A program made the translations under genes and the position numbers. Of a stretch of 64,000 nt of DNA, positions 46,628-64,000 are shown piece after piece. A model generated the notes under the pieces. It had not been told where the DNA came from and searched no databases. It worked only from the letters and a program-made list of their open reading frames with translations. Source of the stretch: Desulfurellales bacterium (GTDB lineage Bacteria > Campylobacterota_A > Desulfurellia > Desulfurellales > Hippeaceae). Each line of letters opens with the position of its first letter. Within the stretch, counting starts at the first letter, position 1. The stretch lies in assembly GCA_027008245.1 (NCBI GenBank), contig JALTCA010000066.1, forward strand, positions 18,688 through 82,687, in the 5' to 3' direction.

Positions 46628-46708
46628 ACAATGGCAGCAAAACATTTGCCTTGGCTTCTTTTAAACTTTACAATAAATAACGATTAACTTAATTGCGAAG
46701 GATTGAAG

Positions 46709-48739
46709 ATGGATATATTGAAAACCACAAAGAAAGTCAAATATTTAAATGTTATTCTAAACGATAAACCATTCGAAAAAAACATAGATGCCCTGTTTGG
46801 CGGGTTTCGTGAGCTATTAGCTATAACCTTCGTATCGTCACCAAAATTTTTCTTCGACTTCGTCACGAAGCACGGATTTCAAGAAGTAAAACTCATAATT
46901 GGCATAGAAGACAACGACATAAATGATAAATTCAACTTAATAAACCCCGAACCCCAGTTTGAATTTTTTAAATCGCTCCCACAGGAAATCATAGACAAGA
47001 TTAAAAACAACGAAATACAGGTTAGATATAGCAAATTGGGCATAACCATTCACTCTAAGCTATTTATACTGAAAAATGACCAAAAAATACGGGCAATTAT
47101 GGGTTCTGCCAATTTAACCCAAAAAGCACTGTCTGGAAAAAACCAATTTGAAGAGGTTATCGCATACGATGAGACATACAATCCAGATTTAGTAAAACTC
47201 ATGATTGATAGGTTTGAACATATATGGTCTGAATCCATAGATTATGTGCCAGAAAGGCTTAAAAAAGAAAATAAAACTACAATACAGGTATTCTCAACAA
47301 ACACAGCATTAGACTTACTGAAAGAAAATTTAAGCAAATTGAGTATCGCCGGTGTTTCATCCCAAGCATTAGAGGAATTGATGAACGAAAGCAATGTAGA
47401 AACAGATATGGTGGAATACAAAAAAGAATACTTAACAAATAGCAAAGATATAATAAACACACTAACTAAGAGAACCAAAAAAGGGGTTTTGCTGGTGTCA
47501 CCCAGAGAAATCCCTAAGAAACAGCAACTTATATCGGTTAAGATAACACGGCTTAGTAGGAAATCTGATGAATTAGACTTAAGAAGAGAAGTTGTTTACA
47601 ACGAAACAGATGATATGCTTTATATAGGGAATGGCGAAACTGACTCCTTCGAGCAGTATTCAAAACCAATCGACGAAGAAATAATAATAACTTTTATAAA
47701 GAAAATAAATATGTTTGTTGAGGCATATGAAAAATTCACCATCGGTAGCAAAAAATTGTATTCCAAGCAGAGGGTTTTTGAGGCAATACTATATGCTTTC
47801 AGCTCACCATTTGTATGGAAAATCAGACAGATACATGCAAAAAACAAGGGAAGGGATACGGCATTATCTGATATACCACCGTTTTTAGTAATTGCCGGTC
47901 AAGCTTGGACAGGCAAAACACACCTGCTTGAGTTCATCAGCAGATTACTTGGAACACAGGGCAGGTATTTTCACTATAACACAGATATAAAACCAGCAAA
48001 TGTCAGGGATTACTTCTTCTCAGAAAATATATTTCCCATCTTAATAGACGAAATAACAAAGGACTACTTTACAAGCTCATCTGCTTCAGCTACCAAAGGA
48101 GAGAGTTTTGTAAAAAGCATAACAAATTCATTAAGCGGAAAGCACCCATGTTTAATAGCAACAACAAACACCGAGTTCAACGCAAATATGCAAATAATCA
48201 GAAGAATCTACTACCTACAAATTAATAAACCTTTTGATAAAACCAAGAAATCTCAAACTGATGACTATTTTAGCGAAGTTATAGAAGGAATTGATGATTC
48301 CTTGTTCAAAGACTTCTCGTTTAGATTCTCACAGCAGGTCAAAAACGAAGAGAATGTCGTAAAAAACGGGGATTATCTGAACTTAACTAGAAAGATATTT
48401 GAAGAATACTTCAAAACGGCAAAAATCGAAAAGCCCGATTACTTCATCGATAAACCGCTGCTTGATTACTACCACAGGGGAAGTTTTATGTGGAAAAACC
48501 TATTCCAAACAAAAAGAGAGGGTTTCAAAATTCAAGAAAATATGGTCATTGTTGACCCAACGGTTGTTTTTAATGGTGACAGAATAGAAAAAGAAAAAGC
48601 TAAAAAGTTCTTAGATATAGGAGTGATACTGGAAGATAGCGTAGTGCTGGTTTTAGATAAGGATAAATTCTTTGATTTTATAGATTTAAACAAAAAAACC
48701 GGACTTTTTGGAAAAATAAGTAGCTTATTTAAAGCTTAA
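46709..48739 (+). CDS. PLD-family (HxK) nuclease domain fused to a P-loop/AAA+-like NTPase domain
   Basis: IHSKLFIL...GSANLT...NQFE; Walker A GQAWTGKT, Walker B ILIDE, IATTN, IIRRI; ATG 46709 (TTG 46703 alternative). Confidence 0.8.
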   Translation: MDILKTTKKVKYLNVILNDKPFEKNIDALFGGFRELLAITFVSSPKFFFDFVTKHGFQEVKLIIGIEDNDINDKFNLINPEPQFEFFKSLPQEIIDKIKNNEIQVRYSKLGITIHSKLFILKNDQKIRAIMGSANLTQKALSGKNQFEEVIAYDETYNPDLVKLMIDRFEHIWSESIDYVPERLKKENKTTIQVFSTNTALDLLKENLSKLSIAGVSSQALEELMNESNVETDMVEYKKEYLTNSKDIINTLTKRTKKGVLLVSPREIPKKQQLISVKITRLSRKSDELDLRREVVYNETDDMLYIGNGETDSFEQYSKPIDEEIIITFIKKINMFVEAYEKFTIGSKKLYSKQRVFEAILYAFSSPFVWKIRQIHAKNKGRDTALSDIPPFLVIAGQAWTGKTHLLEFISRLLGTQGRYFHYNTDIKPANVRDYFFSENIFPILIDEITKDYFTSSSASATKGESFVKSITNSLSGKHPCLIATTNTEFNANMQIIRRIYYLQINKPFDKTKKSQTDDYFSEVIEGIDDSLFKDFSFRFSQQVKNEENVVKNGDYLNLTRKIFEEYFKTAKIEKPDYFIDKPLLDYYHRGSFMWKNLFQTKREGFKIQENMVIVDPTVVFNGDRIEKEKAKKFLDIGVILEDSVVLVLDKDKFFDFIDLNKKTGLFGKISSLFKA

Positions 48740-48768
48740 AAACAACAAAAAGCGCAAGACCTCAAATT

Positions 48769-49047
48769 TTAAGAGGCCTGCGCAACTTTCTTGTGATATC
48801 TCTCATAGAGGCGGGAAACCAAACGAGAAGCCTTATTCTCATGAATTATGCCTTTTGAGCAAATCTTTCTTATTGCCCTTTCTGCTTCTTTGAGCTGTGT
48901 TTCTAACGCTGCTTTATCCGTTTCTGTTTCTATCATCGTCCTCGTTTTCTTTAAAATGTTTTTAAGCCTTGTTCTATAGGCTTTGTTTCTCATATATCTT
49001 TTCTTATTTTGCCTTGCCCTTTTCTCTGCAGACTTGTGATTAGCCAC
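48769..49047 (-). CDS. rpsT: 30S ribosomal protein S20
   Basis: MANHKSAEKRARQ...KGIIHENKASR. Confidence 0.96.
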   Translation of the reverse strand: MANHKSAEKRARQNKKRYMRNKAYRTRLKNILKKTRTMIETETDKAALETQLKEAERAIRKICSKGIIHENKASRLVSRLYERYHKKVAQAS

Positions 49048-49259
49048 TTACCAAACCCCCTTCTACCTAAATTTAAAGCAACATTTTATTATCACAACAC
49101 TCTATATTTGTCAAATTTTTACTAAAAATAATGGTAAATTTGAGAAAAATTGATTTTTAAAGAATAAATGAAAAAATCAATATTATTTATATTTATTTTG
49201 ATTTATTTCTTGTTATTTCATAATATATTGACTTGAAAATTAGAGAAAAAGGAGTATTG

Positions 49260-49286
49260 TTAGCACTCGAGAACGATGAGTGCTAA
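49260..49286 (+). promoter_or_regulatory. CIRCE element (HrcA operator) upstream of groES
   Basis: Exact TTAGCACTC-N9-GAGTGCTAA; TTGAAA-N16-TATTGT promoter directly upstream (49233-49260). Confidence 0.97.
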
Positions 49287-49310
49287 CAAAAACTAAAAGG
49301 AGGTGGGAAA

Positions 49311-49574
49311 ATGGCATTCAAGCCTTTAATGGACAGGGTTTTGGTAGAACCACAGGATTTAGAGCAGAAAACGGAAAGCGGAATTATCATTCCAGACACA
49401 GCAAAGGAAAAACCACAGCAAGGTGTGATTGTAGAAATTGGAGAAGATGTGGAAAAGGTAGAAAAAGGCGACGTTGTAGCTTATGAAAAGTATGCAGGCA
49501 ACGAAATAAAAATTAATGACAAAAAGTACGTAATTCTCAAAGAAGACGAGATTTTAGGAAAATTCGTCGATTAA
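49311..49574 (+). CDS. groES: Co-chaperonin GroES
   Basis: KPLMDRVLV, SGIIIPDTAKEKPQ. Confidence 0.97.
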   Translation: MAFKPLMDRVLVEPQDLEQKTESGIIIPDTAKEKPQQGVIVEIGEDVEKVEKGDVVAYEKYAGNEIKINDKKYVILKEDEILGKFVD

Positions 49575-49584
49575 AAAACAATAA

Positions 49585-51237
<1,653 letters not shown>

Positions 51238-51259
51238 AAACCAGAACATTTGCAAAACC

Positions 51260-51298
51260 ACCCGGTGCATCTCTAAAGGTGTGCCGGGTTTTTTATTT
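51260..51298 (+). terminator. Intrinsic terminator after groEL
   Basis: ACCCGG...CCGGGT stem followed by TTTTTATTT. Confidence 0.75.
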
Positions 51299-51913
51299 AA
51301 CAAAAGGATTATACTTCTTTTCGTGACCAATCGTTGTCAGCTCACCGTGGCCGGGAAAAACAGAGGTGTCATCAGGTAGGCTTAAAAGCTTTCTTAAACT
51401 TTCCATTAATGCCGCATAATCACCACCCTGTAAATCCCACCTACCAACGGATTCAAAAAACAGCGTGTCTCCGCTAAATAAAATCTTTTTCTTTGGTTCA
51501 TACAAACAAATAGACCCAGGTGTATGCCCTGGCGTGTGAATTACAGTAAATTTTGAATTACCAACATTTATTACATCGTCATCATTAAGGACAATATCCG
51601 GTTTTGGTGATTCCTTAATATATACCCCAAAAACTCTGGCTTCTAAATGTGCCATTTTTAAACAACTGACATCATAATAACCAATTGCGAGTGGAGCATT
51701 ATATTTTTCTTTAAAATAAGCATTTGCTCCCACGTGATCAAAATGACAGTGCGTGTCTACTATTACAACAACACTCAAACTATTTGAGTCAATAAAAGAA
51801 TCTATAGAGCTATCATTTTCAGCTGGGTCTATTATCATCGTCTCGTTGGTTTTCTCATCGACGTAAACATAGCAATTAGTTAATAACCCACCAACAGCAA
51901 ACCTTTTAACCAT
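51293..51913 (-). CDS. MBL-fold metallo-hydrolase (glyoxalase II/YcbL-like)
   Basis: THCHFDH, HTPGHTPG, SGDTLF, PGHG, NPF. Confidence 0.9.
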   Translation of the reverse strand: MVKRFAVGGLLTNCYVYVDEKTNETMIIDPAENDSSIDSFIDSNSLSVVVIVDTHCHFDHVGANAYFKEKYNAPLAIGYYDVSCLKMAHLEARVFGVYIKESPKPDIVLNDDDVINVGNSKFTVIHTPGHTPGSICLYEPKKKILFSGDTLFFESVGRWDLQGGDYAALMESLRKLLSLPDDTSVFPGHGELTTIGHEKKYNPFVK

Positions 51914-51926
51914 AATTCACCCAAAT

Positions 51927-51964
51927 AAAAAAGCCCCCTATTCACCAACAAATTAAGGGGGCTT
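51927..51964 (-). terminator. Terminator-like hairpin closing the MBS operon
   Basis: AAGCCCCCT-N16-AGGGGGCTT with a T6 run on the minus strand. Confidence 0.6.
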
Positions 51965-51988
51965 ATCTTTAATTTTCAAAGAGCTAAA

Positions 51989-52528
51989 TCAATAGCTTTT
52001 TTGAAATATTCCGCTTATAAAAGCTCCTCCAGATTCTGTAACCAAACCATAAACAGATAGAAACTTCTTTTTATTTTCTTCTATGCTTTTAATTTGCTCT
52101 TCTTTTGTATTATTATCATCCATTAGAACGAGAACTACATCGCCAACTTTTAGTTCATCGGCTCTCAAGAGCATCTCTTCTCCACCGCGTTTTATGGGAA
52201 TTTGATGTGATATTGTAACTACAGTCTGCTTAGTCTCTGTTTTAACAACAAGCAAAGGCTCGTAAGACACTCTTCTAATTATTTCCAAAACCCTTTCAAA
52301 TCCATTTTTACTATAAACTTGAAAATCCTCATTTATATCCTTTAGCCAAATATCCTCAGCCTTTGCCGCTAACCTCTCTGCGGGTTTTACTAATTTAAAC
52401 AAATTCCTTATTGTAAAACTGCCTGTCTTATTATCGTACTTCACAATAACCGTTTCATTCTCAGAATAACCATTATAAAAACGGTCCCTTATAGGCTCTC
52501 CAAAGTATATTTTATCTCTTAATTCCAT
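51989..52528 (-). CDS. Stand-alone Hint (mini-intein-like) domain protein lacking splicing residues
   Basis: Block A-like GYSENETVIV, block B VVTISHQI (TxxH), ADELKVGD, block F-like VYGLVTE, block G-like GIFQKS; GGGGA RBS, 8 bp after upstream stop. Confidence 0.7.
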   Translation of the reverse strand: MELRDKIYFGEPIRDRFYNGYSENETVIVKYDNKTGSFTIRNLFKLVKPAERLAAKAEDIWLKDINEDFQVYSKNGFERVLEIIRRVSYEPLLVVKTETKQTVVTISHQIPIKRGGEEMLLRADELKVGDVVLVLMDDNNTKEEQIKSIEENKKKFLSVYGLVTESGGAFISGIFQKSY

Positions 52529-52536
52529 GATTCCCC

Positions 52537-54354
52537 CTATTTCTTTGTTCTCAGGTATCTATCAATACCAATAGCAGCCCTATGACCGTTAGCTATAGCA
52601 GATATTGCATCTCCTCTCGATGTTTCAACAAGGTCTCCACCTGCGAATACTCCAGGAATGGTTGTCTCTCCGTATTCATCAATCTTAATCTTTCTTCTTG
52701 GAGTAAATTCTAATTTATCAAGCAATTCTTTTGGTACGAAGGACAAATCGTACATCTGACCCACAGCCTCAACAATGTAGTCACCCTCGAGCACTTTCTT
52801 CTGGTCTTCATAGAAAGCTGGATTAAACCTATGGTTTTCATCAAATACGTATTTAACCTTCTTTACCTCAAGTCCTCTAATTTTTCCGTTTTCATCCAGT
52901 AATACTTGATTTGGACCCCAACCTGGATTGAATATTACTCCTTCTTCGAGCGCACCATCTATCTCTTCCTTTGAAGCAGGCATTATATCCCAATCTTCCA
53001 AACTTACCATCTGTACCATCGTTCCTTCACCGCCATAAGCCATCTGCTGCAACCTAACAACAGTTCTTGCTACGTCCATAGCAACGTTACCACCACCTAT
53101 GACGATAACCCTCTTCGAAATTTCTCTTCTGCCCTCAATTTTAACCTGCCTCAAGAATTTTATAGCCTGTATTACATCTTGGTGCTCTTCTCCCTTAAGA
53201 TTTATGTAACGGCCGAAAGATAAACCAACGCCTATATAGACAGCATCATAATCTTCTAATAGCTCCTCAAATGAAATATCCTTGCCAGCTTCTGTATTAA
53301 GCCTTATCTCTACACCCATATCCTCTATGTGTTTAATCTCTTTATCCAACTCATAAATAGGAAGCCTGTACATTGGTATGCCGCTTGCTAAGGCACCACC
53401 TGCCCTTTGCCCCTTCTCAAATATTGTCACAGAGTGACCCATAGTGGTCAGATGGTATGCACATGACAAACCACTTGGACCTCCACCTATTATTGCAACT
53501 TTCTTACCCGTTGGCGGCATCTTTTCTATTTCAACATCCTTGTAGCTCTCTAACTGGTCAGTAGCATATCTCTTCAGCCACATAATCAAAACAGGCTCGC
53601 CTCTGTAGTTGTAAACGCAGGCATCTTGGCATCTATGAGTACAAATCCTACCACATATACCAGGTAGTACATTGTCCTCAAGCATATATTTAACGGATTT
53701 CTTGTTATCCTCATCAAATATGGCCTGTATGTACTCAGGAATTTTCATGTGGGCTGGGCATCCCTGCATACATATACCGCATCCCAAGCAACGCATAGCC
53801 TCTTTCAATGCCTGTTCCCTTGTAAAGCCCTTTACAATTTCTTCGAAAGTCTTCTTTCTGACATCGGGCTCTAACTCTTCCATCTTCTCGGGTTCAAGCA
53901 TTAGAGGTGTAATCTCGTCGCTTTGCGTATATCCTATCTCCCTTTCCTGCTCTGCTAACGGAACCCAATTGAATGCATCTGCATCAGGAGAAACATAGAT
54001 TAAATCCTTGGACATCTTTAAAGAGCCCGTTGGACACATTTCAACACACAAGGCGCAGAAAGAGCATCTGCCATAATCTATCTTTGGTCTAACAGGATTT
54101 GCACCAACCTTATTTTTATCGATAGGGTGTATATTTGACGGATCAACCATTGTAATGGCTGCACACGGACATATATCTCTACAGTTTCCGCAACCAATAC
54201 ACTTGTCAACGTCATTTATATGTAAACCTCTAAATCTATCCGGAACAGGTTTTTCCTCATACGGATACCTTAAGGTATGAGGCTTTTTAAACAGATACTT
54301 TATAGATGAAAGCGGCTTTAGAAAACTTCCATTCTCATATTCTTTTATATTCAT
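52537..54354 (-). CDS. MbsN/NuoI-like 2x[4Fe-4S] subunit fused to GltD/SudA-like FAD-dependent pyridine-nucleotide oxidoreductase
   Basis: YPYE...RFRG, CIGCGNCRDICP, CSFCALCVEMCP; then EAMRCLGC, CGRIC, GGGPSG, GGGNVAMD, FAGGD. Confidence 0.9.
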   Translation of the reverse strand: MNIKEYENGSFLKPLSSIKYLFKKPHTLRYPYEEKPVPDRFRGLHINDVDKCIGCGNCRDICPCAAITMVDPSNIHPIDKNKVGANPVRPKIDYGRCSFCALCVEMCPTGSLKMSKDLIYVSPDADAFNWVPLAEQEREIGYTQSDEITPLMLEPEKMEELEPDVRKKTFEEIVKGFTREQALKEAMRCLGCGICMQGCPAHMKIPEYIQAIFDEDNKKSVKYMLEDNVLPGICGRICTHRCQDACVYNYRGEPVLIMWLKRYATDQLESYKDVEIEKMPPTGKKVAIIGGGPSGLSCAYHLTTMGHSVTIFEKGQRAGGALASGIPMYRLPIYELDKEIKHIEDMGVEIRLNTEAGKDISFEELLEDYDAVYIGVGLSFGRYINLKGEEHQDVIQAIKFLRQVKIEGRREISKRVIVIGGGNVAMDVARTVVRLQQMAYGGEGTMVQMVSLEDWDIMPASKEEIDGALEEGVIFNPGWGPNQVLLDENGKIRGLEVKKVKYVFDENHRFNPAFYEDQKKVLEGDYIVEAVGQMYDLSFVPKELLDKLEFTPRRKIKIDEYGETTIPGVFAGGDLVETSRGDAISAIANGHRAAIGIDRYLRTKK

Positions 54355-54365
54355 AATATCACCCC

Positions 54366-55469
54366 TTACCTATCAAATTCAGGAGGACAAACGTCCAAGC
54401 TTACTAAAATGTGAGAAACATCTGCGAGCCTTTGACCTACAAGTAGCCTTTCAGCTATTGTAAACATATGCACATGAGAAGCTCCCCTAATAGTTACCCT
54501 ATACGGTCTACCTGTACCATCACTCACCATATAGAATCCATGCTCACCCCTTGCAGATTCCACCTTTGCATAAGCTTCACCTGCCGGAACACGCCATTTA
54601 AGCGGGTTAGGCATTTTTTCCCATACTGGACCCTTCTTAGGCATCTTCTTTATAGCCTGCTCTATAATGTTCAAACTATTTTCAAACTCCCATCTCCTTA
54701 TCATTGCCCTTGCCCATGAGTCGCCATCTGTCAATGTAGGTACTTCAAAATCTATATACTCATAAGCAGCATAAGGGTCATCCTTTCTTACATCTTGTGC
54801 AACACCTGTAGCCTTTAGAACAGGTCCTGTTGCACACCACTCAATGGCTTGCTCTTTAGAAATTACAGCAACTCCTCTTGTTCTCTGTTTGAACATTATG
54901 TTTTTGAAAAATATATTGTCGTAATCAATCAATTTATCCCTTAAATATCTAACATACGAAAGAACTTCATCTTCCCAACCAGGTGGTGTATCCCTCCTAA
55001 CTCCACCGGGCCAAATGTACATGTGATAAACCCTAACTCCACAGATCTCAGCAAACAAATCCAAGGCGTAATCCCTATCACCAACACTCCATTGCGAAAG
55101 CGTGTAAAGACCTAATGTTGCAGCAAAACCACCCATCCAAAAAAGATAGGCTGCAATTCTTGCCATCTCAAGAACTATAGTTCTTAAATATTTAGCTCTC
55201 TCCGGTATCTCAACACCCATCAAATCCTCAACAGCCATAGCGTAGGCTGCTTCGTTAATATCTGGCTCAGGAACGCAGATACGAGGTATCAACGCCAAAT
55301 TTTGTATGTAGTACCTATTCTCCATTGACTTTTCAAAGGCTCTATGCAAGTACCCTGGATCTCCCTTGGCTGACACAACAGTATCGCCCTCTAACTCAAG
55401 CTTAACAGAAAAGTTACCCGGAATTCCAGGGTGGTTTGGACCTATAAATAGTTCATAAGTTCTACTCAT
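54366..55469 (-). CDS. MbsL/MbxL (NuoD-like) catalytic subunit
   Basis: GPNHP, GYLHRAFEK, RICVPE, C-terminal DVCPPEFDR; no NiFe CxxC pairs; start at ATG 55469 after GGAGG. Confidence 0.88.
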   Translation of the reverse strand: MSRTYELFIGPNHPGIPGNFSVKLELEGDTVVSAKGDPGYLHRAFEKSMENRYYIQNLALIPRICVPEPDINEAAYAMAVEDLMGVEIPERAKYLRTIVLEMARIAAYLFWMGGFAATLGLYTLSQWSVGDRDYALDLFAEICGVRVYHMYIWPGGVRRDTPPGWEDEVLSYVRYLRDKLIDYDNIFFKNIMFKQRTRGVAVISKEQAIEWCATGPVLKATGVAQDVRKDDPYAAYEYIDFEVPTLTDGDSWARAMIRRWEFENSLNIIEQAIKKMPKKGPVWEKMPNPLKWRVPAGEAYAKVESARGEHGFYMVSDGTGRPYRVTIRGASHVHMFTIAERLLVGQRLADVSHILVSLDVCPPEFDR

Positions 55470-55947
55470 TTTCATCCTCCGAGTGTCTGAATACGTAATG
55501 TTCATTACAATACTTTACTGAATCGAAGTCTTTCCTCATCGGAGGCATATCCTTCCAGTTTTCCAAGATAAATGGCTTTCCTGCATCCTCATTGCCTTCA
55601 ACCTTAATACCAAACATCTCTGCAACTTCCCTTTCCCAATTGTGTGCAGGTGGATAAATCTTATCCGCAGTATCAATTACAGGATTATCCCTATCAATCC
55701 AGACTCTAACAATTACATTGATTTTCTCTTCCCTCTCGTAGAGCACATAAAATATCTCAAACTTTCCCTCATTTATTCTATCTACAACATTCATGAAGGA
55801 CAATTGCGTGATATTTAAAACATTCTTCATGTAATACAACGTATCTATAACCCTATCCTTATCAACATCCACAAATACCCTATTGTGTCTTTGAACTGTA
55901 ACCTCAACTCCATCTATTCCCTTAATCCTCTCCACCAAATCCATCAT
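55462..55947 (-). CDS. MbsK/MbxK (NuoC-like) subunit
   Basis: WEREVAEMFGI, PPMRKDF. Confidence 0.88.
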   Translation of the reverse strand: MMDLVERIKGIDGVEVTVQRHNRVFVDVDKDRVIDTLYYMKNVLNITQLSFMNVVDRINEGKFEIFYVLYEREEKINVIVRVWIDRDNPVIDTADKIYPPAHNWEREVAEMFGIKVEGNEDAGKPFILENWKDMPPMRKDFDSVKYCNEHYVFRHSEDENE

Positions 55948-56456
55948 CCCAGCACCTTCCTTTGATTCTCTTTATAGTAGGCAAGGTTCCTTTTGTAACG
56001 TTTATATCCATCAGCTTTTCCTTGATCTATCATATCCATCAAAGTCCTAAATGATGTAATTATGGCTTCTGGTCTCGGCATACATCCAGCTATATACAAG
56101 TCAACAGGAATGTATCTATCCAACCTCTTTATGACGGAGTAGGAGTCCCAGTAGACACCACCGTTAATTGGGCAAGAACCAAAACCTATAACATATTTCG
56201 GATCAAGCATCTGCTCATACACGGTTATAATACGCTTTAAGGTTTTTATATTAACATAACCTGTAACCAAGAGAATATCAGATTGTCTTGGAGTAACGAA
56301 AGGTGCCAAACCGAATCTCGACATATCGTACCTTGACGTCATAGTTGGAGGAAGCTCAACCGCCCCACATCCAGTACAGTAATGTATCATCCAAAGAGAA
56401 CGCTTTCTCAGCATATTTGCTATGGTCTTAGCTTGTTCCTCGGTTAGTCTATCCAT
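55944..56456 (-). CDS. MbsJ/MbxJ (NuoB-like) [4Fe-4S] subunit
   Basis: CTGCGAVE, PRQSD, GSCPINGG, IAGCMPRPE. Confidence 0.9.
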   Translation of the reverse strand: MDRLTEEQAKTIANMLRKRSLWMIHYCTGCGAVELPPTMTSRYDMSRFGLAPFVTPRQSDILLVTGYVNIKTLKRIITVYEQMLDPKYVIGFGSCPINGGVYWDSYSVIKRLDRYIPVDLYIAGCMPRPEAIITSFRTLMDMIDQGKADGYKRYKRNLAYYKENQRKVLG

Positions 56457-56469
56457 AAACCTGACCTCC

Positions 56470-57357
56470 TTACTTAACCAACACTATGATAAGACTAATT
56501 AATGCAACAACTGTAGGCCATTTCCAAAAGAAACGTACTGCGTCATCTATTTTAAACCTCGGATATACTTCGTCAAACATCATCATTATAAAAAACACCA
56601 CAAACATTTTCACATAGAACCATAAGATGTTAGTTGCACCACCTAAAAACAAATCAACAAACAAGGCTATTTCAATGTAAATGTGGAAAGCATGGTTTAT
56701 AACAAGAAAACCGAGGTGTTTTCCACCATATTCAACCATAGGTCCTGTTGCAACCTCATGCGGAGCTGTAACAATATCAAATGGATGTTCACCTAAAGCA
56801 CCATACGACACAACGAATCCAACAATGGCAGAAAGCGGTAAAGACCATAAAGCCCAATGACCATGAGCTTGAGCAGCAACTATATCGGCCAAATTCGTTG
56901 TGTGATAGTAAAGCACTACAGATATGATTATTATTACAAATGGTAAATCGTAACCAAACATTAAAGTCAGCGCCCTTGATATACCTATGCTTGCATTGGG
57001 GTTAGCGGATTCACCAGCACCCAAAGCCATTCCCAAAGAGCCAATTACCATCATATACATAAGTGCTATTAAATCACCAGAACCAGTAAAAAGTTTCACT
57101 CCTGCAACAGGTATGAAAAGAACCGTCAAAATTGAGCCAGCCAATGCTATTACAGGCCCCAAACTATACATAACACCGTGTGTTATATTTCCTTCCTTTA
57201 AAAGTAACTTCAATATATTGTAAATAGGCTGTATGATAGGGGGACCGTACCTTCTCTCTATCCTCGCAGACACCTTAAGCTTAATCATCATAAAAGACAA
57301 TCCTACTAAAAAGGCAAATATCGGCGCTATTATTGCAAAAAAGATTTTATCTACCAT
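56470..57357 (-). CDS. MbsM/MbxM (NuoH-like) membrane subunit
   Basis: ARIERRYGPP, PFD, GPMVEYGG, PRFKID. Confidence 0.88.
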   Translation of the reverse strand: MVDKIFFAIIAPIFAFLVGLSFMMIKLKVSARIERRYGPPIIQPIYNILKLLLKEGNITHGVMYSLGPVIALAGSILTVLFIPVAGVKLFTGSGDLIALMYMMVIGSLGMALGAGESANPNASIGISRALTLMFGYDLPFVIIIISVVLYYHTTNLADIVAAQAHGHWALWSLPLSAIVGFVVSYGALGEHPFDIVTAPHEVATGPMVEYGGKHLGFLVINHAFHIYIEIALFVDLFLGGATNILWFYVKMFVVFFIMMMFDEVYPRFKIDDAVRFFWKWPTVVALISLIIVLVK

Positions 57358-59243
57358 ACCTTACCTCCCAACAGTACAAAAGCGGCAGCCAAAGTAACAA
57401 TTATAACGATATAAGCGTTATACGTTTCCAAATTTCCCGTGTAAATTCTTCTCATATAGTAATCTCCAAATACCTTTACAGCCTCCACCCAGTAGTTATA
57501 AACTTTTTCTATACTCCATTTAAAGATAGGCTTTATTACCCTACCAAATGACATATAGAAGCCATAGCTGTAGTTATACTTCAAGTCCTCGGTAACAATC
57601 TGACCAGAAGCGTAGTTGTCGTATTGGGAAACCTTTCTTGATTTGGGGAACAAAAGGAACAAAATCCACATAGCAACAAATGCTATAGCAAGTATCGATA
57701 CAATATTGACTGTCACCAAAGCTCCCATAGCTGTACCTTGGGGGAATCCAAACAAATTGTAGGCAATAGGTTTAAATCCAAAGAAAACCATTCCTTTAAC
57801 TATCACATTCATGGCCAAACCGGGCATAACACCCAAAACAATTGTCAAGAGAGCTAAAACCCATATAGCTATCTGCATTAGAATAGGTACATCCTTAACA
57901 TTCTCGTACTTCTTCGGTAACTGCCCAAGGAAAATAGAATGAACCAACCTATATACATATAAAAACGCACCTGTTGATCCAACAAAAGCCATTATCAACA
58001 GGAAAACCTCCTTCTTTTGGAGCAATGCTTCATAAATCATCCATTTTGAAACAAATCCATTCAAAGGAGGAACACCCGCCAAAGCTATGATACCCAAAAG
58101 CAATGCAACAAAACTAAACGGCATTTTTCTTATAAGCCCGCCAAGCTCACTCAAATTCCTCGTTCCCGTTCTGTATATAACGGCACCTACAACCAAGAAC
58201 AAAAGACCCTTAAAAATTGCATGGTTCAATGCATGGAACAAACCACCTGCAACACCCAAAGATGTACCTGTGGCAATTCCAAGAACCACATATCCTATTT
58301 GTGATATGGAAGAGTAAGCCAAAAGTCTTTTTGCATCTTCCTGCATTATTGCCAAGAACGTTGCAAGCACAATGGATAAAGCAGCAAGCCATTGAATAAT
58401 GTAAAGCAAAATAGGTGTAGAAAACACAGACGGCATCAATGAGCTTGCCAATTTAACAGACACAAGACCATATAAAACAATAAATAAACCGTATGCACCC
58501 ATTTTTATGAGAACACCAGACAAAAGGGGCGATACTGGCGACGGTGCCTCGGAGTGTGCGTCAGGCAACCATGTATGTAAGGGCATAACGGCTGCTTTCA
58601 CAAAGAAGCCTATAGCCAAAAGTACAACTGTCCATATAACAAATGTTGGAGATGAATGCAACAACACGTTTGCTACGTCTGCATAAACCAAGCTATGAGC
58701 CTTTGCATACAACATAGCCATTGCCAAGAACATCGCATAAGCACCTATAACACTCATGATTATGTATTTATAGCCTGCCGCCATAGACCTCTTGCCACCG
58801 TGTATAATTAGGAAATATGAAGTCCAGCTCATTATCTCCCAGAACATAAAGAACGTGATTAAATCGCCTGCTAATACAATACCTACCATTGCTCCTTCGA
58901 CAAAGAGGAGATACATATAGTAGGCATCCAATTTTAGCTCATCTTCTTCTTTTCTCATGTCGTCTATAGAAAATAACACAATCAAGAATGACGCAGATGT
59001 CACAATGAATAAGAAGAGCCATGTTATTGGGTTGGTTTGGAGTATCAGATCGGAACCAAACAACTTGCCCCACACAATGCCTTTAGTTGAAACATTGTAA
59101 TAACCTATAATCTCAAAAGCAGTCGCAAAAGAGAAAACTATAGCTATAAGATTTCTTATCCATCTATGGATTTTTCCTCCTATAAACGCCAGCAATCCAC
59201 CTATAAAAGGTGTTGCAAGCAACAATTCAAGGGATGCATTCAT
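57351..59243 (-). CDS. MbsH'/MrpA-D-like antiporter membrane subunit
   Basis: FWEIM, PLHTWLPDAHSEAPSP, LLAYSSISQIG, PPLNGFVSK. Confidence 0.88.
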   Translation of the reverse strand: MNASLELLLATPFIGGLLAFIGGKIHRWIRNLIAIVFSFATAFEIIGYYNVSTKGIVWGKLFGSDLILQTNPITWLFLFIVTSASFLIVLFSIDDMRKEEDELKLDAYYMYLLFVEGAMVGIVLAGDLITFFMFWEIMSWTSYFLIIHGGKRSMAAGYKYIIMSVIGAYAMFLAMAMLYAKAHSLVYADVANVLLHSSPTFVIWTVVLLAIGFFVKAAVMPLHTWLPDAHSEAPSPVSPLLSGVLIKMGAYGLFIVLYGLVSVKLASSLMPSVFSTPILLYIIQWLAALSIVLATFLAIMQEDAKRLLAYSSISQIGYVVLGIATGTSLGVAGGLFHALNHAIFKGLLFLVVGAVIYRTGTRNLSELGGLIRKMPFSFVALLLGIIALAGVPPLNGFVSKWMIYEALLQKKEVFLLIMAFVGSTGAFLYVYRLVHSIFLGQLPKKYENVKDVPILMQIAIWVLALLTIVLGVMPGLAMNVIVKGMVFFGFKPIAYNLFGFPQGTAMGALVTVNIVSILAIAFVAMWILFLLFPKSRKVSQYDNYASGQIVTEDLKYNYSYGFYMSFGRVIKPIFKWSIEKVYNYWVEAVKVFGDYYMRRIYTGNLETYNAYIVIIVTLAAAFVLLGGKVW

Positions 59244-59244
59244 T

Positions 59245-60735
59245 TTATAGACCTCCTAACTTTAAAGCAATGTTAATGTAACTTTTACTCATGAGGTCGT
59301 TAGCAACATGATGCGTAAGATTGATAATTGGAGTAGGGTACAAACTTATGAAAATCAATATCAACCCCAATATGGTGAACGAAATTAATATTCCTGCAGG
59401 TGCTTCTTTTACTTGTAAATCTTCAGAAGGTTTGCCAAAGTACATATTTTGCAAAAGTTTGAAGAAGTAAGCCCCCTCTACAACAGACATCAGTAGTATG
59501 ATAACAACCGAAGCTATCATTAAAAAGTTTTGTTGTTGTAACGCAGCAAATATTATTTTTAATTTGCTCCAAAAGCCAAAGAAAGGAGGCAAACCCATCA
59601 AAGAAAACGCACCTATAGCCAAAAAGAACGATGAAAACTTCATCTTTCTTCCGAGGCCAGCAAAATCTTCAATCTTTCTTGACCCAATCCTTAATATCAT
59701 ACCGCCAGTAACCAAGAACAATAGAGCCTTAGATACAGAATGATTGATTATCTGCATAATGGAACCTTGAAAACCATTGGTAGAATCCAAAGCAAACGCA
59801 AAGAAAAACAATCCTGTCTGACCTATAGTGGAGTATGCAAGCATCCTTTTTATATCCTGCTGGAAGTAAGCAGAAACCTCTCCGAATATCAAAGTCAGCA
59901 AGCCAAAGAAAAGCATAATTGTGTATATCTCTTTATAATCAAACATCAGGTTTGTAAGCCTATACAGTGCGTATATCGCTGCTGTAGTCATAATACCTGA
60001 AAGTATAGCAGAGACAGAAGATGGGGCAGCAGGGTGCGCATCTGGCAACCATGCATTTAATGGGAATAGAGCTCCCTCTATACCTAAACCAATAAAAATC
60101 ATGGAATATGCCAAAAACTTCTGTTGGAACGTTAAATAAGCACTTCTTTGGGCTAAATCCACCATATTCAATGTTCCAGTAGCAGCATACAACATTATTA
60201 TCCCCACAAGCAACAAAGAACCACCAATGGAACCCATAACTAAGTATTTGAAACCAGCTTCAACAGCTCCTTGGTCTCTGTGAAACCCAACAAGACCAAA
60301 TGCAGCAATAGAAGTTACCTCAAATGCAACAAAAAGGTTGAAAATGTCACCTGTGACAATCATCCATATAATTCCTGTTACAAGGAGTGTGAAGAGAGCA
60401 TAATATCTCTCCTGAGGCTCCTCATCAATATAAGAAACATTATATATAGAAACCAAAAAACCTAAGACAGAACCTATACCTGCAAGAATAAGAGAAAGTC
60501 TATCAACTACAATGTCAATGGCCAACGGTGGCTTAAAACCAGCCGTTGTTGACATAACCATACCTTTCCCTAAAACCTCAGGTATCAATTGGTAAATCAC
60601 AATTAGATCAATACCAAAAGCAATAATTGGAAGATACTTCACGATGCCCTTAAAAAACGAGGAAAACAAGACCGCTAGAAATACAAAAAAGAGTGGAACC
60701 GCTATCAATAATATTGGATGTGCTGCGCTTACCAT
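59245..60735 (-). CDS. MbsH/MrpD-like antiporter membrane subunit
   Basis: DIFNLFVAFE, WLPDAHPAAP, MLAYS, PPFFGFWSK. Confidence 0.88.
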   Translation of the reverse strand: MVSAAHPILLIAVPLFFVFLAVLFSSFFKGIVKYLPIIAFGIDLIVIYQLIPEVLGKGMVMSTTAGFKPPLAIDIVVDRLSLILAGIGSVLGFLVSIYNVSYIDEEPQERYYALFTLLVTGIIWMIVTGDIFNLFVAFEVTSIAAFGLVGFHRDQGAVEAGFKYLVMGSIGGSLLLVGIIMLYAATGTLNMVDLAQRSAYLTFQQKFLAYSMIFIGLGIEGALFPLNAWLPDAHPAAPSSVSAILSGIMTTAAIYALYRLTNLMFDYKEIYTIMLFFGLLTLIFGEVSAYFQQDIKRMLAYSTIGQTGLFFFAFALDSTNGFQGSIMQIINHSVSKALLFLVTGGMILRIGSRKIEDFAGLGRKMKFSSFFLAIGAFSLMGLPPFFGFWSKLKIIFAALQQQNFLMIASVVIILLMSVVEGAYFFKLLQNMYFGKPSEDLQVKEAPAGILISFTILGLILIFISLYPTPIINLTHHVANDLMSKSYINIALKLGGL

Positions 60736-61070
60736 TTCAAACTCCTTATCTTCTTGATATCAAGAGTTTTGTAATACCTGTATAAAAGTACTACAAAAGC
60801 CACAGCCAATGCCAATTCAGAGGCATCTATAACTATAGCCGTAAGGGTTAAAGCCTGAGGTATTGGGTCTACCATGGTATTCGGGTTCAAGCCAACTCTT
60901 GAGAATATAGGTGCTGTTCCATGGTTCATATAACCTATGCTTATAATCAGAAGATTCACACCCGAAGATAGGAAATCTAATCCAATAATTATTTTTATAA
61001 GATTACTCTTAACCAAAACAGCATATAAACCTATGGCAATCAAAAGCAAAGAGCTTACATAATATATCAT
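60729..61070 (-). CDS. mnhC: MbsG / Na+/H+ antiporter subunit C
   Basis: NLIKIIIG, DPIPQALTLTAIVI. Confidence 0.85.
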   Translation of the reverse strand: MIYYVSSLLLIAIGLYAVLVKSNLIKIIIGLDFLSSGVNLLIISIGYMNHGTAPIFSRVGLNPNTMVDPIPQALTLTAIVIDASELALAVAFVVLLYRYYKTLDIKKIRSLKW

Positions 61071-61780
61071 TCCTCACCTCCGTGGTACATAACATCGCTC
61101 ATTACATCATCTATAATTCCAGCAAATTCAGAGGCGACTTTAAAACCAATTGCGATGTAAATTATTGGAAGAATACCAGCACTTACGAGAGTATTGAAAG
61201 TACCCATTGGCAGGAAGTTGTAAAGGAAAGAAACCTTAGGTGTCAATAGTCCATACAAACCAAGACATACAAATGTAAGTCCTGCCAAGCCTTCAATAGC
61301 AGCAAGCCCTTTTCTCTTAAGCCTGTAACCAGGATAAGCAAGATACAACAATAGGAATCCGGATGCAATTATCGAACCCCCTTGGAAACCTCCACCCGGT
61401 GTCAAGTGTCCATGTACAAAGATGTAGGCGCCAAACAACAAAATAAACGGGAATACAATACGGGAACCGACACGAACAACAAAATTCGGTTTGATTTCAA
61501 TTTTTTTCTTTCTTCTATTCTCTCCTATCATATACAGCAGAATGCCAACTCCGGCAGCTGCGGCAAACAAAACAGAAACCTCACCTAACGTATCAAAACC
61601 CCTGTAATCCAAAACAACAGAGGTTACTATGTTTGCTGCACCTGTTTGTTGCACACCATGATCAATATAGTACTTACCCACTGTCATTTTGTTCTTACCA
61701 AAGGGAAAAGCAGCGAAAAACAACACTAAAGAGAGAACGATAATCGCAAGGAATATCGAGTAAACTACTTTTCTAATCAT
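61067..61780 (-). CDS. mnhB: MbsE(F) / Na+/H+ antiporter subunit B
   Basis: NIVTSVVLDYRGFDTLGE, HGHLTPGGGFQGG. Confidence 0.85.
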   Translation of the reverse strand: MIRKVVYSIFLAIIVLSLVLFFAAFPFGKNKMTVGKYYIDHGVQQTGAANIVTSVVLDYRGFDTLGEVSVLFAAAAGVGILLYMIGENRRKKKIEIKPNFVVRVGSRIVFPFILLFGAYIFVHGHLTPGGGFQGGSIIASGFLLLYLAYPGYRLKRKGLAAIEGLAGLTFVCLGLYGLLTPKVSFLYNFLPMGTFNTLVSAGILPIIYIAIGFKVASEFAGIIDDVMSDVMYHGGEE

Positions 61781-62016
61781 TCTTCTCTCCTTTCGGTTTG
61801 TCTAATTCCTATGACGTAGATAATCATGACTAGGGCCGCCCCTATGCTTGCCTCTGCCATAGCAACATCTGGAGCCTGCAAGAGTAAAAACAACACAGAG
61901 ATAATTAAACTAACAGCACCCATGGCAATGACAGCAGCTATAAGGTTTTTAAGCTCTATAGCCAAAATCGATAGTACAATCATAAATATTATCAGCACCC
62001 AGGCAACATAAATCAT
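61777..62016 (-). CDS. MbsD / DUF4040 (MbhD-like) small membrane subunit
   Basis: LQAPDVAMAEASIG. Confidence 0.85.
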   Translation of the reverse strand: MIYVAWVLIIFMIVLSILAIELKNLIAAVIAMGAVSLIISVLFLLLQAPDVAMAEASIGAALVMIIYVIGIRQTERREE

Positions 62017-62360
62017 TTTGCTTCCTCCTTCTCATCTTCAGCAAAGAATTCCTTTGCTTCATCCACAACCGTTCTTTCATCCAGAGGAACACCCGTTTTG
62101 TATGCAGCTCTCATCAAGGCACTTGACCCAATGGGTGCTGTAAGAAGTATAAATATAGCAACAGAAATACACTTAATAAACCAATCTGGATGTAAAATAC
62201 CTACCCCTATAACCGAAGAAAAGGCACCCAGGGTTGTGGATTTTGTAGAAGCTTGCATTCTCGTATAAAGGTCTGGAAACCTAACAAGACCGTAAGAACC
62301 TAAAAGCAAAAATATAGCGCCGAAATACAGGAAAAAATAACCCACTATCTCTCGTAGCAT
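62013..62360 (-). CDS. mnhG: MbsC / Na+/H+ antiporter subunit G
   Basis: GLVRFPDLYTRMQASTK, LTAP, RAAY. Confidence 0.88.
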   Translation of the reverse strand: MLREIVGYFFLYFGAIFLLLGSYGLVRFPDLYTRMQASTKSTTLGAFSSVIGVGILHPDWFIKCISVAIFILLTAPIGSSALMRAAYKTGVPLDERTVVDEAKEFFAEDEKEEAK

Positions 62361-62362
62361 AA

Positions 62363-62620
62363 CTACAACCCCCTCTCAATAAACCTGGCAACAATCAACA
62401 CGCCAATGAATGAAAGGATAGCGTAAACCAAAGCCACATCTATATAAATGTAGCGATCAAATACCATTGCAAAGAAAACAAATAGAGCTACACTAACAGT
62501 AGTAAAAACATCCAAAGCTACAGTTCTGTTCGCAACATCAGGCCCTACTACCATTCTTACAACAGATAAAAGCAACGCTATGCCCGCTATTCCCACAAAA
62601 ATCCATTCCAGCACGCTCAT
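62363..62620 (-). CDS. mnhF: MbsB / Na+/H+ antiporter subunit F
   Basis: GPDVANRTVALD, DVALVYAILSF. Confidence 0.87.
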   Translation of the reverse strand: MSVLEWIFVGIAGIALLLSVVRMVVGPDVANRTVALDVFTTVSVALFVFFAMVFDRYIYIDVALVYAILSFIGVLIVARFIERGL

Positions 62621-63123
62621 CCGAATATCTCCTTTAAAAATTTCTCAAATGGTGCTCCAATCTCTCTTGTTGCTCCCTCTTCACTTGCATCTTTAACATA
62701 AATCCAGTGAATCAAAAGTGTGTCGTCTTTAGCATCAATAGTGAGCGTTCCAGGTGTCATTGTTATGGAATTAGCCAAAGATAATTTTCCGGAATCTGTC
62801 TTAAGGTTTGTTTTCACCTTAACTATGCCCGGTTTAATAGGCATACTCGGGGACAACACCCTATATGCAACATCAAAATTGGCAAGGAGTATTTGCCACA
62901 AATAGTAGGGAATGTAGATAATCAAGTAGATAATACGTTTAGGTGAAAAATGGGCTAAACCATGTTCGGACAAATATTCTGAACCCAGAAGAGCTACCAA
63001 AAAAGAAACAACAAAACCAACCACAAGTTCATCTTTACGTAAAGTGACAGTCAGCATCAGCCAAGATGCAAACATAATTACAAGCGTAAAGACAAACCGA
63101 CTAAGCTTCCCCGCTTTCCCCAT
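62617..63123 (-). CDS. mnhE: MbsA / Na+/H+ antiporter subunit E
   Basis: ANFDVA, PGIV, ANSITMTPGT, LIHW. Confidence 0.88.
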   Translation of the reverse strand: MGKAGKLSRFVFTLVIMFASWLMLTVTLRKDELVVGFVVSFLVALLGSEYLSEHGLAHFSPKRIIYLIIYIPYYLWQILLANFDVAYRVLSPSMPIKPGIVKVKTNLKTDSGKLSLANSITMTPGTLTIDAKDDTLLIHWIYVKDASEEGATREIGAPFEKFLKEIFG

Positions 63124-63156
63124 ATCATCACACCTCCTTTTTTTCCTTCAAGCGCT

Positions 63157-63184
63157 ATTCTACTTTTCAGAAAAAATTAGTCAA
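63157..63184 (-). promoter_or_regulatory. Sigma70-type promoter of the MBS operon
   Basis: TTGACT-N16-TAGAAT about 33 nt upstream of the start; GGAGGTG RBS. Confidence 0.6.
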
Positions 63185-63314
63185 GGCTTTGCTGAACATT
63201 TAACAGCTCCGTTAGTATCACACATACTATTTTACTATGAACCAACAGTTCATTTCCTTTTCAAAAGTTTATTTACCTTTACAAACATTTAAATTATAAT
63301 CTTAGCGTGCAACA

Positions 63315-63758
63315 TTACTCAACTATTATACATTTATCAACTTTTTCCTTTATCTTCTCTATATAAGGCGCAATATCTTCACTTGTTACAATTTTCTCTA
63401 TAGGACCCCGTTCCTCCAATGGTATTATGAAAGTTCCTACTTTGTTATTTTCGATAAAATCAAAAATAACTTTTGACATCTTGCCTTTCAATTCAATTCT
63501 ATTGACGTTTACGATACCGTTATCTTCCCTTAAGAGGTTTTCCATCTTGTCAAATATAGCCTCTCCTATGTGTTCAAGCCCCTGCTCAAGTTCTTTCTCC
63601 AAATAAGCTGTGCCTCCGCCAGCAAAAAAGTCTGTATCGTTAACAAAGAGAAGATGAACAGTGTCTATATTTTCCTCTTTTGCAATTTTACTCGCCATTT
63701 TGACAGCTCTTTTACAAGAAGGACAATCCTTAACCAAAACCACAAGCTTATATTCCAT
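63315..63758 (-). CDS. Universal stress protein-like protein with N-terminal CxxC
   Basis: USP-like layout (KLVVLV..S.RAV..A...A....VHLLFV...G...I...C-terminal IIVE); CPSC; follows an ArsB/NhaD permease. Confidence 0.6.
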   Translation of the reverse strand: MEYKLVVLVKDCPSCKRAVKMASKIAKEENIDTVHLLFVNDTDFFAGGGTAYLEKELEQGLEHIGEAIFDKMENLLREDNGIVNVNRIELKGKMSKVIFDFIENNKVGTFIIPLEERGPIEKIVTSEDIAPYIEKIKEKVDKCIIVE

Positions 63759-63761
63759 CTT

Positions 63762-64000
63762 TTAACCTCCTATAAACAGCCAGATCATACTAATGACTAT
63801 AGAAACAAACGTTGCAGGTGCACCAACCTTTAAGAAGCGCTTGAACGTCACTGGATATCCAGCCTTCTCCATTATACCCGCTGTAACAACGTTGGCACTT
63901 GCACCGATCAAAGTACCATTTCCACCCAAGCAAGCCCCTAAAGACAAAGCCCACCACAGTGTATTGCCGGCATGTGGAATTGTCTGGCTTAAATACCCTA
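63762..64000 (-). CDS. ArsB/NhaD (SLC13-like) ion transporter, C-terminal part (runs off the window end)
   Basis: LWWALSLGACLGGNGTLIGASANVV...TFKRFLKVG signature. Confidence 0.85.
   Translation of the reverse strand, partial: GYLSQTIPHAGNTLWWALSLGACLGGNGTLIGASANVVTAGIMEKAGYPVTFKRFLKVGAPATFVSIVISMIWLFIGG

Follow-up and report, generated by a model that had tools for sequence, protein, structure and literature searches.

A predicted Hint-fold protein without splicing residues encoded at the end of MBS-type operons in Desulfurellales and Caldisericota

Gene content of the locus

The window, i.e., the whole 64,000-nucleotide stretch of contig JALTCA010000066.1 (GenBank assembly GCA_027008245.1, Desulfurellales) that was analysed, carries an MBS operon on its reverse strand. 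In the direction of transcription, this operon comprises mbsA, B, C, D, E, and G for Mrp-type small membrane subunits (60729..63123), the two antiporter-like subunits mbsH' and mbsH (57351..60735), the NuoH-like membrane anchor mbsM (56470..57357), mbsJ (55944..56456), the NuoC-like mbsK (55462..55947), mbsL (54366..55505), and a 605-aa mbsN-gltD fusion that joins a NuoI-like part with two [4Fe-4S] clusters to a GltD/NfnA-like Fe-S flavoprotein (52537..54354). The set of 13 genes is thus complete from mbsA to mbsN, including both antiporter-like subunits, and it is followed on the same strand by a stand-alone Hint-fold gene of 179 codons as the 14th gene (51989..52528), which was identified from the ORF list, its translation, and the predicted structure. 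In the PDB, MbsL and MbsJ both match chains of structure 6u8y best, with E values of 5e-120 for MbsL, including both cysteines, and 4e-71 for MbsJ, including the CxxC motif. Cys77 and Cys373 of MbsL align with Cys85 and Cys385 of Pyrococcus furiosus MbsL, and the CTGC of MbsJ aligns with C25-C28 of its counterpart; the accessible text of the P. furiosus study gives MbsL Cys85/Cys385 and MbsJ C25-x-x-C28 as the diagnostic residues (PMC7684303). Judged by gene set and diagnostic cysteines, the operon is of the MBS type, in agreement with the initial annotation of the Hint gene as the last cistron of a respiratory MBS operon.

The 13-gene set is common to the window, the MBS of P. furiosus (6u8y), and the Mbx of Thermotoga maritima, whereas the MbsN-GltD fusion and the 14th, Hint-fold gene distinguish the window from both. 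As far as the accessible texts go, the T. maritima Mbx has 13 subunits (PMC9431562), and the complexes of both organisms are described without a Hint subunit (PMC7684303, PMC9431562). A bacterial MBS of 13 genes has also been reported, in a study whose main text never mentions "intein" or "Hint" (PMC10356935), and lineage-specific extra subunits of related complexes are mentioned in the accessible part of a further paper (PMC8165549).

Several other genes flank the operon. On the same strand, mbsA is preceded by a Usp-like gene and by one for a 560-aa transporter-like protein (window 63315-64000; L100:2450-5444); ahead of these, another antiporter-like membrane gene is situated at the end of the contig. 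A 678-aa ORF at 46703-48739, which differs from its housekeeping neighbours, combines an N-terminal HKD-like motif (phospholipase D nuclease) with a later P-loop, and it is possibly a defence gene. The gene next after the Hint gene, again on the same strand, encodes a metallo-beta-lactamase fold; this neighbour is kept in the Desulfurellales loci and absent from the Caldisericota loci examined.

The reading frame of the Hint gene (52528-51989) and all motifs quoted from it in the initial annotation are present in the sequence. Its ATG lies 8 nt past the stop of the 605-aa fusion gene. The ribosome binding site originally ascribed to the gene exists as a Shine-Dalgarno-like AGGGGG (52533..52538, reverse strand), with the correction that it overlaps the stop codon of the fusion gene and that the 8 nt are the distance between stop and ATG; relatives of the gene have AGGAGG or a similar motif. 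Likewise, the proposed terminator of the operon can be read from the sequence as a hairpin with a 9-bp GC-rich stem, a 16-nt loop, and a U-run (51923..51964, reverse strand). As a pattern scan did not report this element and the 76-nt region has a folding z-score of only -1.5, it is regarded as a prediction. Comparable hairpins with T-runs come after the Hint gene in most relatives, according to visual inspection without a count, and nothing in Rfam matched window positions 48000-64000. In locus L016, the Hint stop (10540) is followed closely by a direct repeat with a unit of about 30 bases in place of a plain hairpin, which possibly belongs to a CRISPR-like array.

Predicted fold, splicing residues, and relationship to NrdD inteins

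The Pfam family Intein_splicing matches the window protein below the threshold (E 5e-4) and 20 of 23 family members at E 0.01 or better. From the PDB, a profile of the family retrieved nothing but inteins (best E 2.7e-5), and the best single-sequence PDB match of the window protein is the KlbA intein (E 4e-4). Two AlphaFold2 models were obtained with pLDDT values of 85.9 and 86.1, with low confidence for residues 1-14 in one and 8-15 in the other. Foldseek matched the first model to mini-inteins (E 1e-11, TM 0.78), and structure comparison (VIA) resulted in a Z-score of 22.2 with an rmsd of 1.9 A over 155 residues; all matches above Z 7 are inteins or Hint domains, and unrelated folds begin at Z 4.6. 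AlphaFold2 modelling, Foldseek, and structure comparison (Z about 22) all place the protein among inteins, and a complete Hint fold, as suspected from the initial reading, is predicted for its 179 residues. Class 1 mini-inteins, namely PabCDC21-1 (6rpp), Aes123 PolB1 (9hth), and TvoVMA (4o1s), share the fold over residues 17-179 (Z 21.8-22.2, about 2 A) as well as the block order and the histidine at B:10.

In several structure alignments, model residue 20 corresponds to intein position 1 and residue 178 to the last intein residue, which sets the register to G20 = A:1, K177 = G:6, S178 = G:7, and Y179 = +1; the assignment of G161 to F:4 follows from the alignment to NrdD inteins. A conserved 19-aa extension modelled with low confidence thus takes the place of an N-extein (52472..52528), followed by Gly20, which is no nucleophile (52469..52471), His108 in block B (52205..52207), Gly161 (52046..52048), and, where His-Asn-(Cys/Ser/Thr) and a C-extein would be expected, Lys177-Ser178-Tyr179-stop (51989..52000; all on the reverse strand). 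Conservation was counted over 23 family members. Gly at A:1, His108 at B:10, Gly161 at F:4, Lys177 at G:6, and Tyr179 at +1, with the stop codon directly after it, occur in 23/23, and Ser178 at G:7 in 22/23, with Ala in the remaining one. Position B:7 is Ser in 18, Gly in 3, and Thr in 2 of the 23, so that the TxxH motif of block B described as intact is intact in the window protein but not across the family. His108 is the only canonical catalytic residue kept family-wide; no Cys is conserved, and the window protein has none at all.

With respect to the established intein classes, the protein shares the Hint fold with class 1 according to the predicted model, but Gly20 stands where Cys, Ser, or Thr is expected at position 1, Lys177-Ser178 replaces the C-terminal His-Asn, and Tyr179 and the stop codon replace a nucleophilic +1 residue and the C-extein. 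Nor is there a host protein, as in-frame stops lie close upstream at the loci inspected. A nucleophile at position 1 is likewise missing from the inteins of class 2 (KlbA) and class 3. According to the accessible text of one review, F:4 is Asp or Cys in active inteins, and class 2 inteins, which have Ala1, require Cys+1 and Asp at F:4 (PMC4031507), where the family has Gly20, Tyr179, and Gly161. The accessible part of another source gives Cys at F:4 as a requirement of class 3 together with a WCT motif (PMC7664689); here, F:4 is the invariant Gly161, and no Cys is conserved. Hedgehog-type Hint and BIL domains resemble the protein in their non-mobile Hint fold; unlike it, they carry a nucleophile at the N-terminus and process an adjoining domain, whereas position 1 is Gly in the family and only a 19-aa extension precedes it. 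A split intein does not match either, since a single chain spans the whole fold. By its residues, the protein fails the criteria of classes 1, 2, and 3, based on Gly at position 1 and F:4, the Lys-Ser-Tyr-stop end, and the lack of a host protein and of an endonuclease. The protein thus appears to be dead for splicing, as had been suggested from the Gly at A:1 and F:4, the Lys-Ser end, and the missing Cys, endonuclease, and C-extein.

The closest relatives outside the family are inteins of NrdD, which insert before a conserved Cys, often with a Thr-Tyr start, or at a neighbouring Cys1 site. They provide the best non-family profile matches (E 1.4e-20), and the NrdD Pfam family was found in 17 of the 28 non-family matches that were scanned out of 44. 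The alignment of the N-terminal half is nearly free of gaps, with G-Y-S-x-x-E facing T-Y-S/G-x-x-E, and Thr occupies the position of Gly20 in 14 of 24 non-family matches inspected. In contrast to the Hint protein, NrdD inteins are embedded in their host and keep Thr or Cys1, TxxH, Asp at F:4, and His-Asn-Cys. The boundary of the Thr1 intein in P0031 is fixed by the intein-free allele P0037. Hhalign favours the second, Cys1 intein of P0031, and it also detects a resemblance of the C-terminal end to the Hedgehog-type Hint domain P0065 (probability 94). The Hint gene likely stems from an NrdD-type intein, with the Thr1 and the Cys1 site as candidate donors. The N-terminal extension was also considered as a possible relic of an NrdD extein. 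In one of the 24 matches checked, NrdD P0067 shares all five residues of family positions 15-19, but three residues out of register with its Cys1; this five-residue motif was absent from all four phage NrdD relatives compared, and scans of viral sequences for it were empty.

Position 1 and its surroundings in NrdD inteins provided further observations. P0031, P0032, P0033, L023 (G034:C15), and others contain NrdD inteins with Thr1 and Cys at +1. Since the step-1 nucleophile is named as Cys1 or Ser1 in the accessible text of the review (PMC4031507), it may be worth examining natural inteins that start with Thr. For inteins with Ser1, an NX motif that includes a His is described in the part available (PMC10189870); in the column that we assigned to this residue, Thr1 NrdD inteins have K/R-H and the Hint family has Tyr89. 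The NrdD frame of L023/L024 (G034:C15) has 1866 codons and at least three inteins, two of them with endonuclease-sized inserts.

Family range, operon linkage, and selection

A single-sequence search yielded 26 full-length matches of 179-186 aa, and the family members, mostly of this length, have identities down to 40%. In a profile search covering 1.84 billion representatives, three proteins of 180-185 aa scored below E 1e-30, followed by the NrdD intein at 1.4e-20. No fused or longer forms were found in what was a weak search for them, the profile matches below E 1e-30 all being 180-185 aa long, and a search for viral and phage copies found none. The named loci belong to Desulfurellales and to Caldisericota or Cryosericota, and members are listed as "Hint domain-containing" or "hypothetical" in the databases, one of them (P0215) being WP_014452949.1 of the cultured Caldisericum exile.

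The mbsN-gltD fusion gene is located directly upstream of the Hint gene in all 50 loci examined, i.e., 49 fetched loci and the window, which amount to 30 distinct complete sequences and a truncated one. The two genes are spaced by -17 to +10 nt, and none of these loci has a Hint copy away from the operon. The complete A-to-N gene order together with the Hint gene was recovered in five further regions. Among 130 genomes searched, many of them incomplete, 20 have this MBS subtype, and all 20 carry the Hint gene; none with the subtype lacked it. In the class of the window, MbsL of at least 82% identity is present in 6 of 37 genomes, and the same six have the Hint gene, while the matches in a seventh genome (G034) are true inteins in an NrdD frame. 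In the phylum of genome G037, 14 of 93 genomes have MbsL of at least 65% identity and all 14 the Hint gene; a 15th Hint-bearing genome is represented by a short contig with the fusion gene upstream. The linkage to the mbs operon that had been proposed as a test is therefore constant in Desulfurellales and Caldisericota, but since it goes back to one acquisition, the genomes are not independent tests of it.

Selection was assessed by dN/dS (Nei-Gojobori). Of 17 pairs, 14 have values of 0.024-0.140 and one, with a dS of 0.06, has 0.21; the ratio is undefined for the other two, whose sequences are almost the same. Most dS values are near saturation, but three pairs with dS 0.14-0.97 have values of 0.034, 0.024, and 0.063. 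In dN, the Hint gene equals or slightly exceeds mbsK, which encodes a known subunit, and it changes faster than the fusion protein. Frames are intact and length is constant, and the signals for start and stop persist in members of only 40% identity. On the basis of these comparisons, the Hint gene is under purifying selection, without the neutral decay that would have spoken against the initial interpretation. That it is a stranded, decaying intein relic without function is a negligible option despite the loss of all splicing nucleophiles, as it is excluded by the intact frames, constant length, conserved start and stop signals, and dN/dS values far below 1.

Quick trees of the Hint gene and the fusion from 23 paired rows have five well-supported clades in common and differ in small details, e.g., the placement of L002. 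The six Desulfurellales rows nest among the Caldisericota rows in a quick tree rooted with six distant fusions, which suggests that the whole operon, with the Hint gene, moved between lineages.

Proposed role and alternatives

The Hint fold, purifying selection, and constant MBS linkage together provide good support for the proposed domestication of an intein fold. An intein fold without splicing residues, strong selection, and constant operon company likely reflects a genetic parasite that was recruited as a respiratory helper. With odds slightly better than even, the former intein, selected at the end of the MBS operon without its splicing residues, assists the soluble arm of the complex without catalysis, as an accessory subunit or an assembly factor. 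The action on the respiratory complex, as chaperone, binding, or sensing subunit, is suggested by gene context. In favour of an accessory subunit are the linkage in 50/50 loci, the co-occurrence in 20/20 genomes, the low dN/dS, the clades shared with the fusion, the conserved extension, and a linker segment absent from the fusion.

Few parts of the protein are as conserved as the extension, although it is modelled with low confidence in both monomers, and in this respect it may resemble a partner-binding segment. Its residues D5, I7, E11, D15, R16, F17, and N19 are invariant in 23/23 members, and conservation peaks at residues 3-25, 51-63, 85-90, and 174-179, which are rich in Arg, Lys, and aromatic residues. 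Regarding the linker, 937 NuoI-GltD fusion proteins were found, which separate into 15 close clusters of at least 65% identity and a large group that does not exceed 51%. Among the best 120 of the 937, the 15 closest fusions lack about 23 linker residues that are conserved in the 105 more distant ones. A possible course of events would be that an NrdD-type mini-intein gave rise to the Hint gene in a single event, that translation of the gene is coupled to the mbsN-gltD fusion, and that the protein binds the fusion protein via the extension and via conserved residues of basic or aromatic nature, where it possibly substitutes for the 23-residue linker missing from the fusion of this lineage. The full scenario, in which a parasitic NrdD intein became a structural MBS subunit that docks on the MbsN-GltD module, replaced the lost linker, and then passed between phyla with the operon, is plausible, with chances slightly short of even.

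Some observations do not fit an accessory subunit easily. A selected gene could ride with the operon without acting on its product. The Hint gene evolves faster than the fusion, and the invariance of His108 and Asn19-Gly20 is not obviously needed for structure. Furthermore, the contrast between a widespread fusion (937 proteins) and a small Hint family (26 matches) indicates that most such complexes apparently work without a Hint protein; judged by family size, the distant fusion group would lack the gene.

Linkage and selection would fit equally well with a separate ligand-binding or regulatory protein of sulfur respiration that would not belong stably to the complex and whose old pocket (His108, Lys177, Tyr179, Arg16, Trp61) binds a small molecule or electron carrier. 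The invariant polar and aromatic residues at or beside the former splice junctions in the sequence agree with such a pocket, but neither a Cys nor another redox-active residue is conserved, the fold matches, which are inteins or Hint domains above Z 7, hint at no ligand, and the tight coupling to the fusion gene would suggest a stoichiometric partner. We consider this explanation unlikely, albeit the best of the alternatives to an MBS accessory protein.

Even less probable is a selected job apart from MBS, e.g., on other inteins or on NrdD, for which the gene merely uses the promoter of the operon. This would suit the NrdD inteins as nearest relatives, and several genomes of the phylum of G037 have an NrdD split by long insertions. 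However, no off-operon copy exists in the 50 loci, no genome of the subtype is without the gene, and the genome of the window (77% complete) had no match to the NrdD and intein queries used.

Asn-Gly is a labile pair, and self-cleavage driven by Asn is known in other proteins. A residual reaction in which His108 activates the Asn19-Gly20 bond, Asn19 cyclises, and the 19-residue peptide is freed as a maturation step or switch would explain why Asn19, Gly20, Ser107, and His108 are conserved in 23/23 members. The His at B:10 is within hydrogen-bond distance of the same bond in several inteins, as stated in the accessible text of the review (PMC4031507). Nevertheless, A:1, F:4, G:6, G:7, and +1 are all non-canonical, as is B:7 in all but the two members with Thr, and His108 may be retained for structural reasons. 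Ser178 is replaced by Ala in one lineage (L010, P0017) and thus is no essential nucleophile. Residual self-cleavage is therefore a rather improbable explanation, slightly behind a job apart from MBS.

No description of a Hint protein in an MBS operon was found in the full-text literature within reach, which excludes most subscription journals. In the accessible parts of the papers cited here, Hint domains carry out peptide-bond chemistry on the chain to which they belong. If an accessory role is confirmed, a selected, nucleophile-free Hint protein would show the reuse of the fold as a binding module, a bacterial MBS subtype would gain an unrecognised component, and the Hint fold would have a purely binding role in energy conservation. 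The AXH domain may be a precedent for a non-catalytic Hint relative; in the Atlas, it came up for homologue P0008 alone and with a low score, and a literature search for AXH in this capacity found nothing. The proposed role is testable, as P0215 belongs to a cultured species.

The fusion protein itself has additional peculiarities. In the Hint-bearing group, an extra Cys64 and a Ser98 are located beside the [4Fe-4S] motifs, where distant relatives have Asn and Cys, respectively. The second Rossmann strand of GltD is usually followed by a basic motif that binds NADPH; both fusion groups have S-L-E at this site, which may point to the use of NADH.
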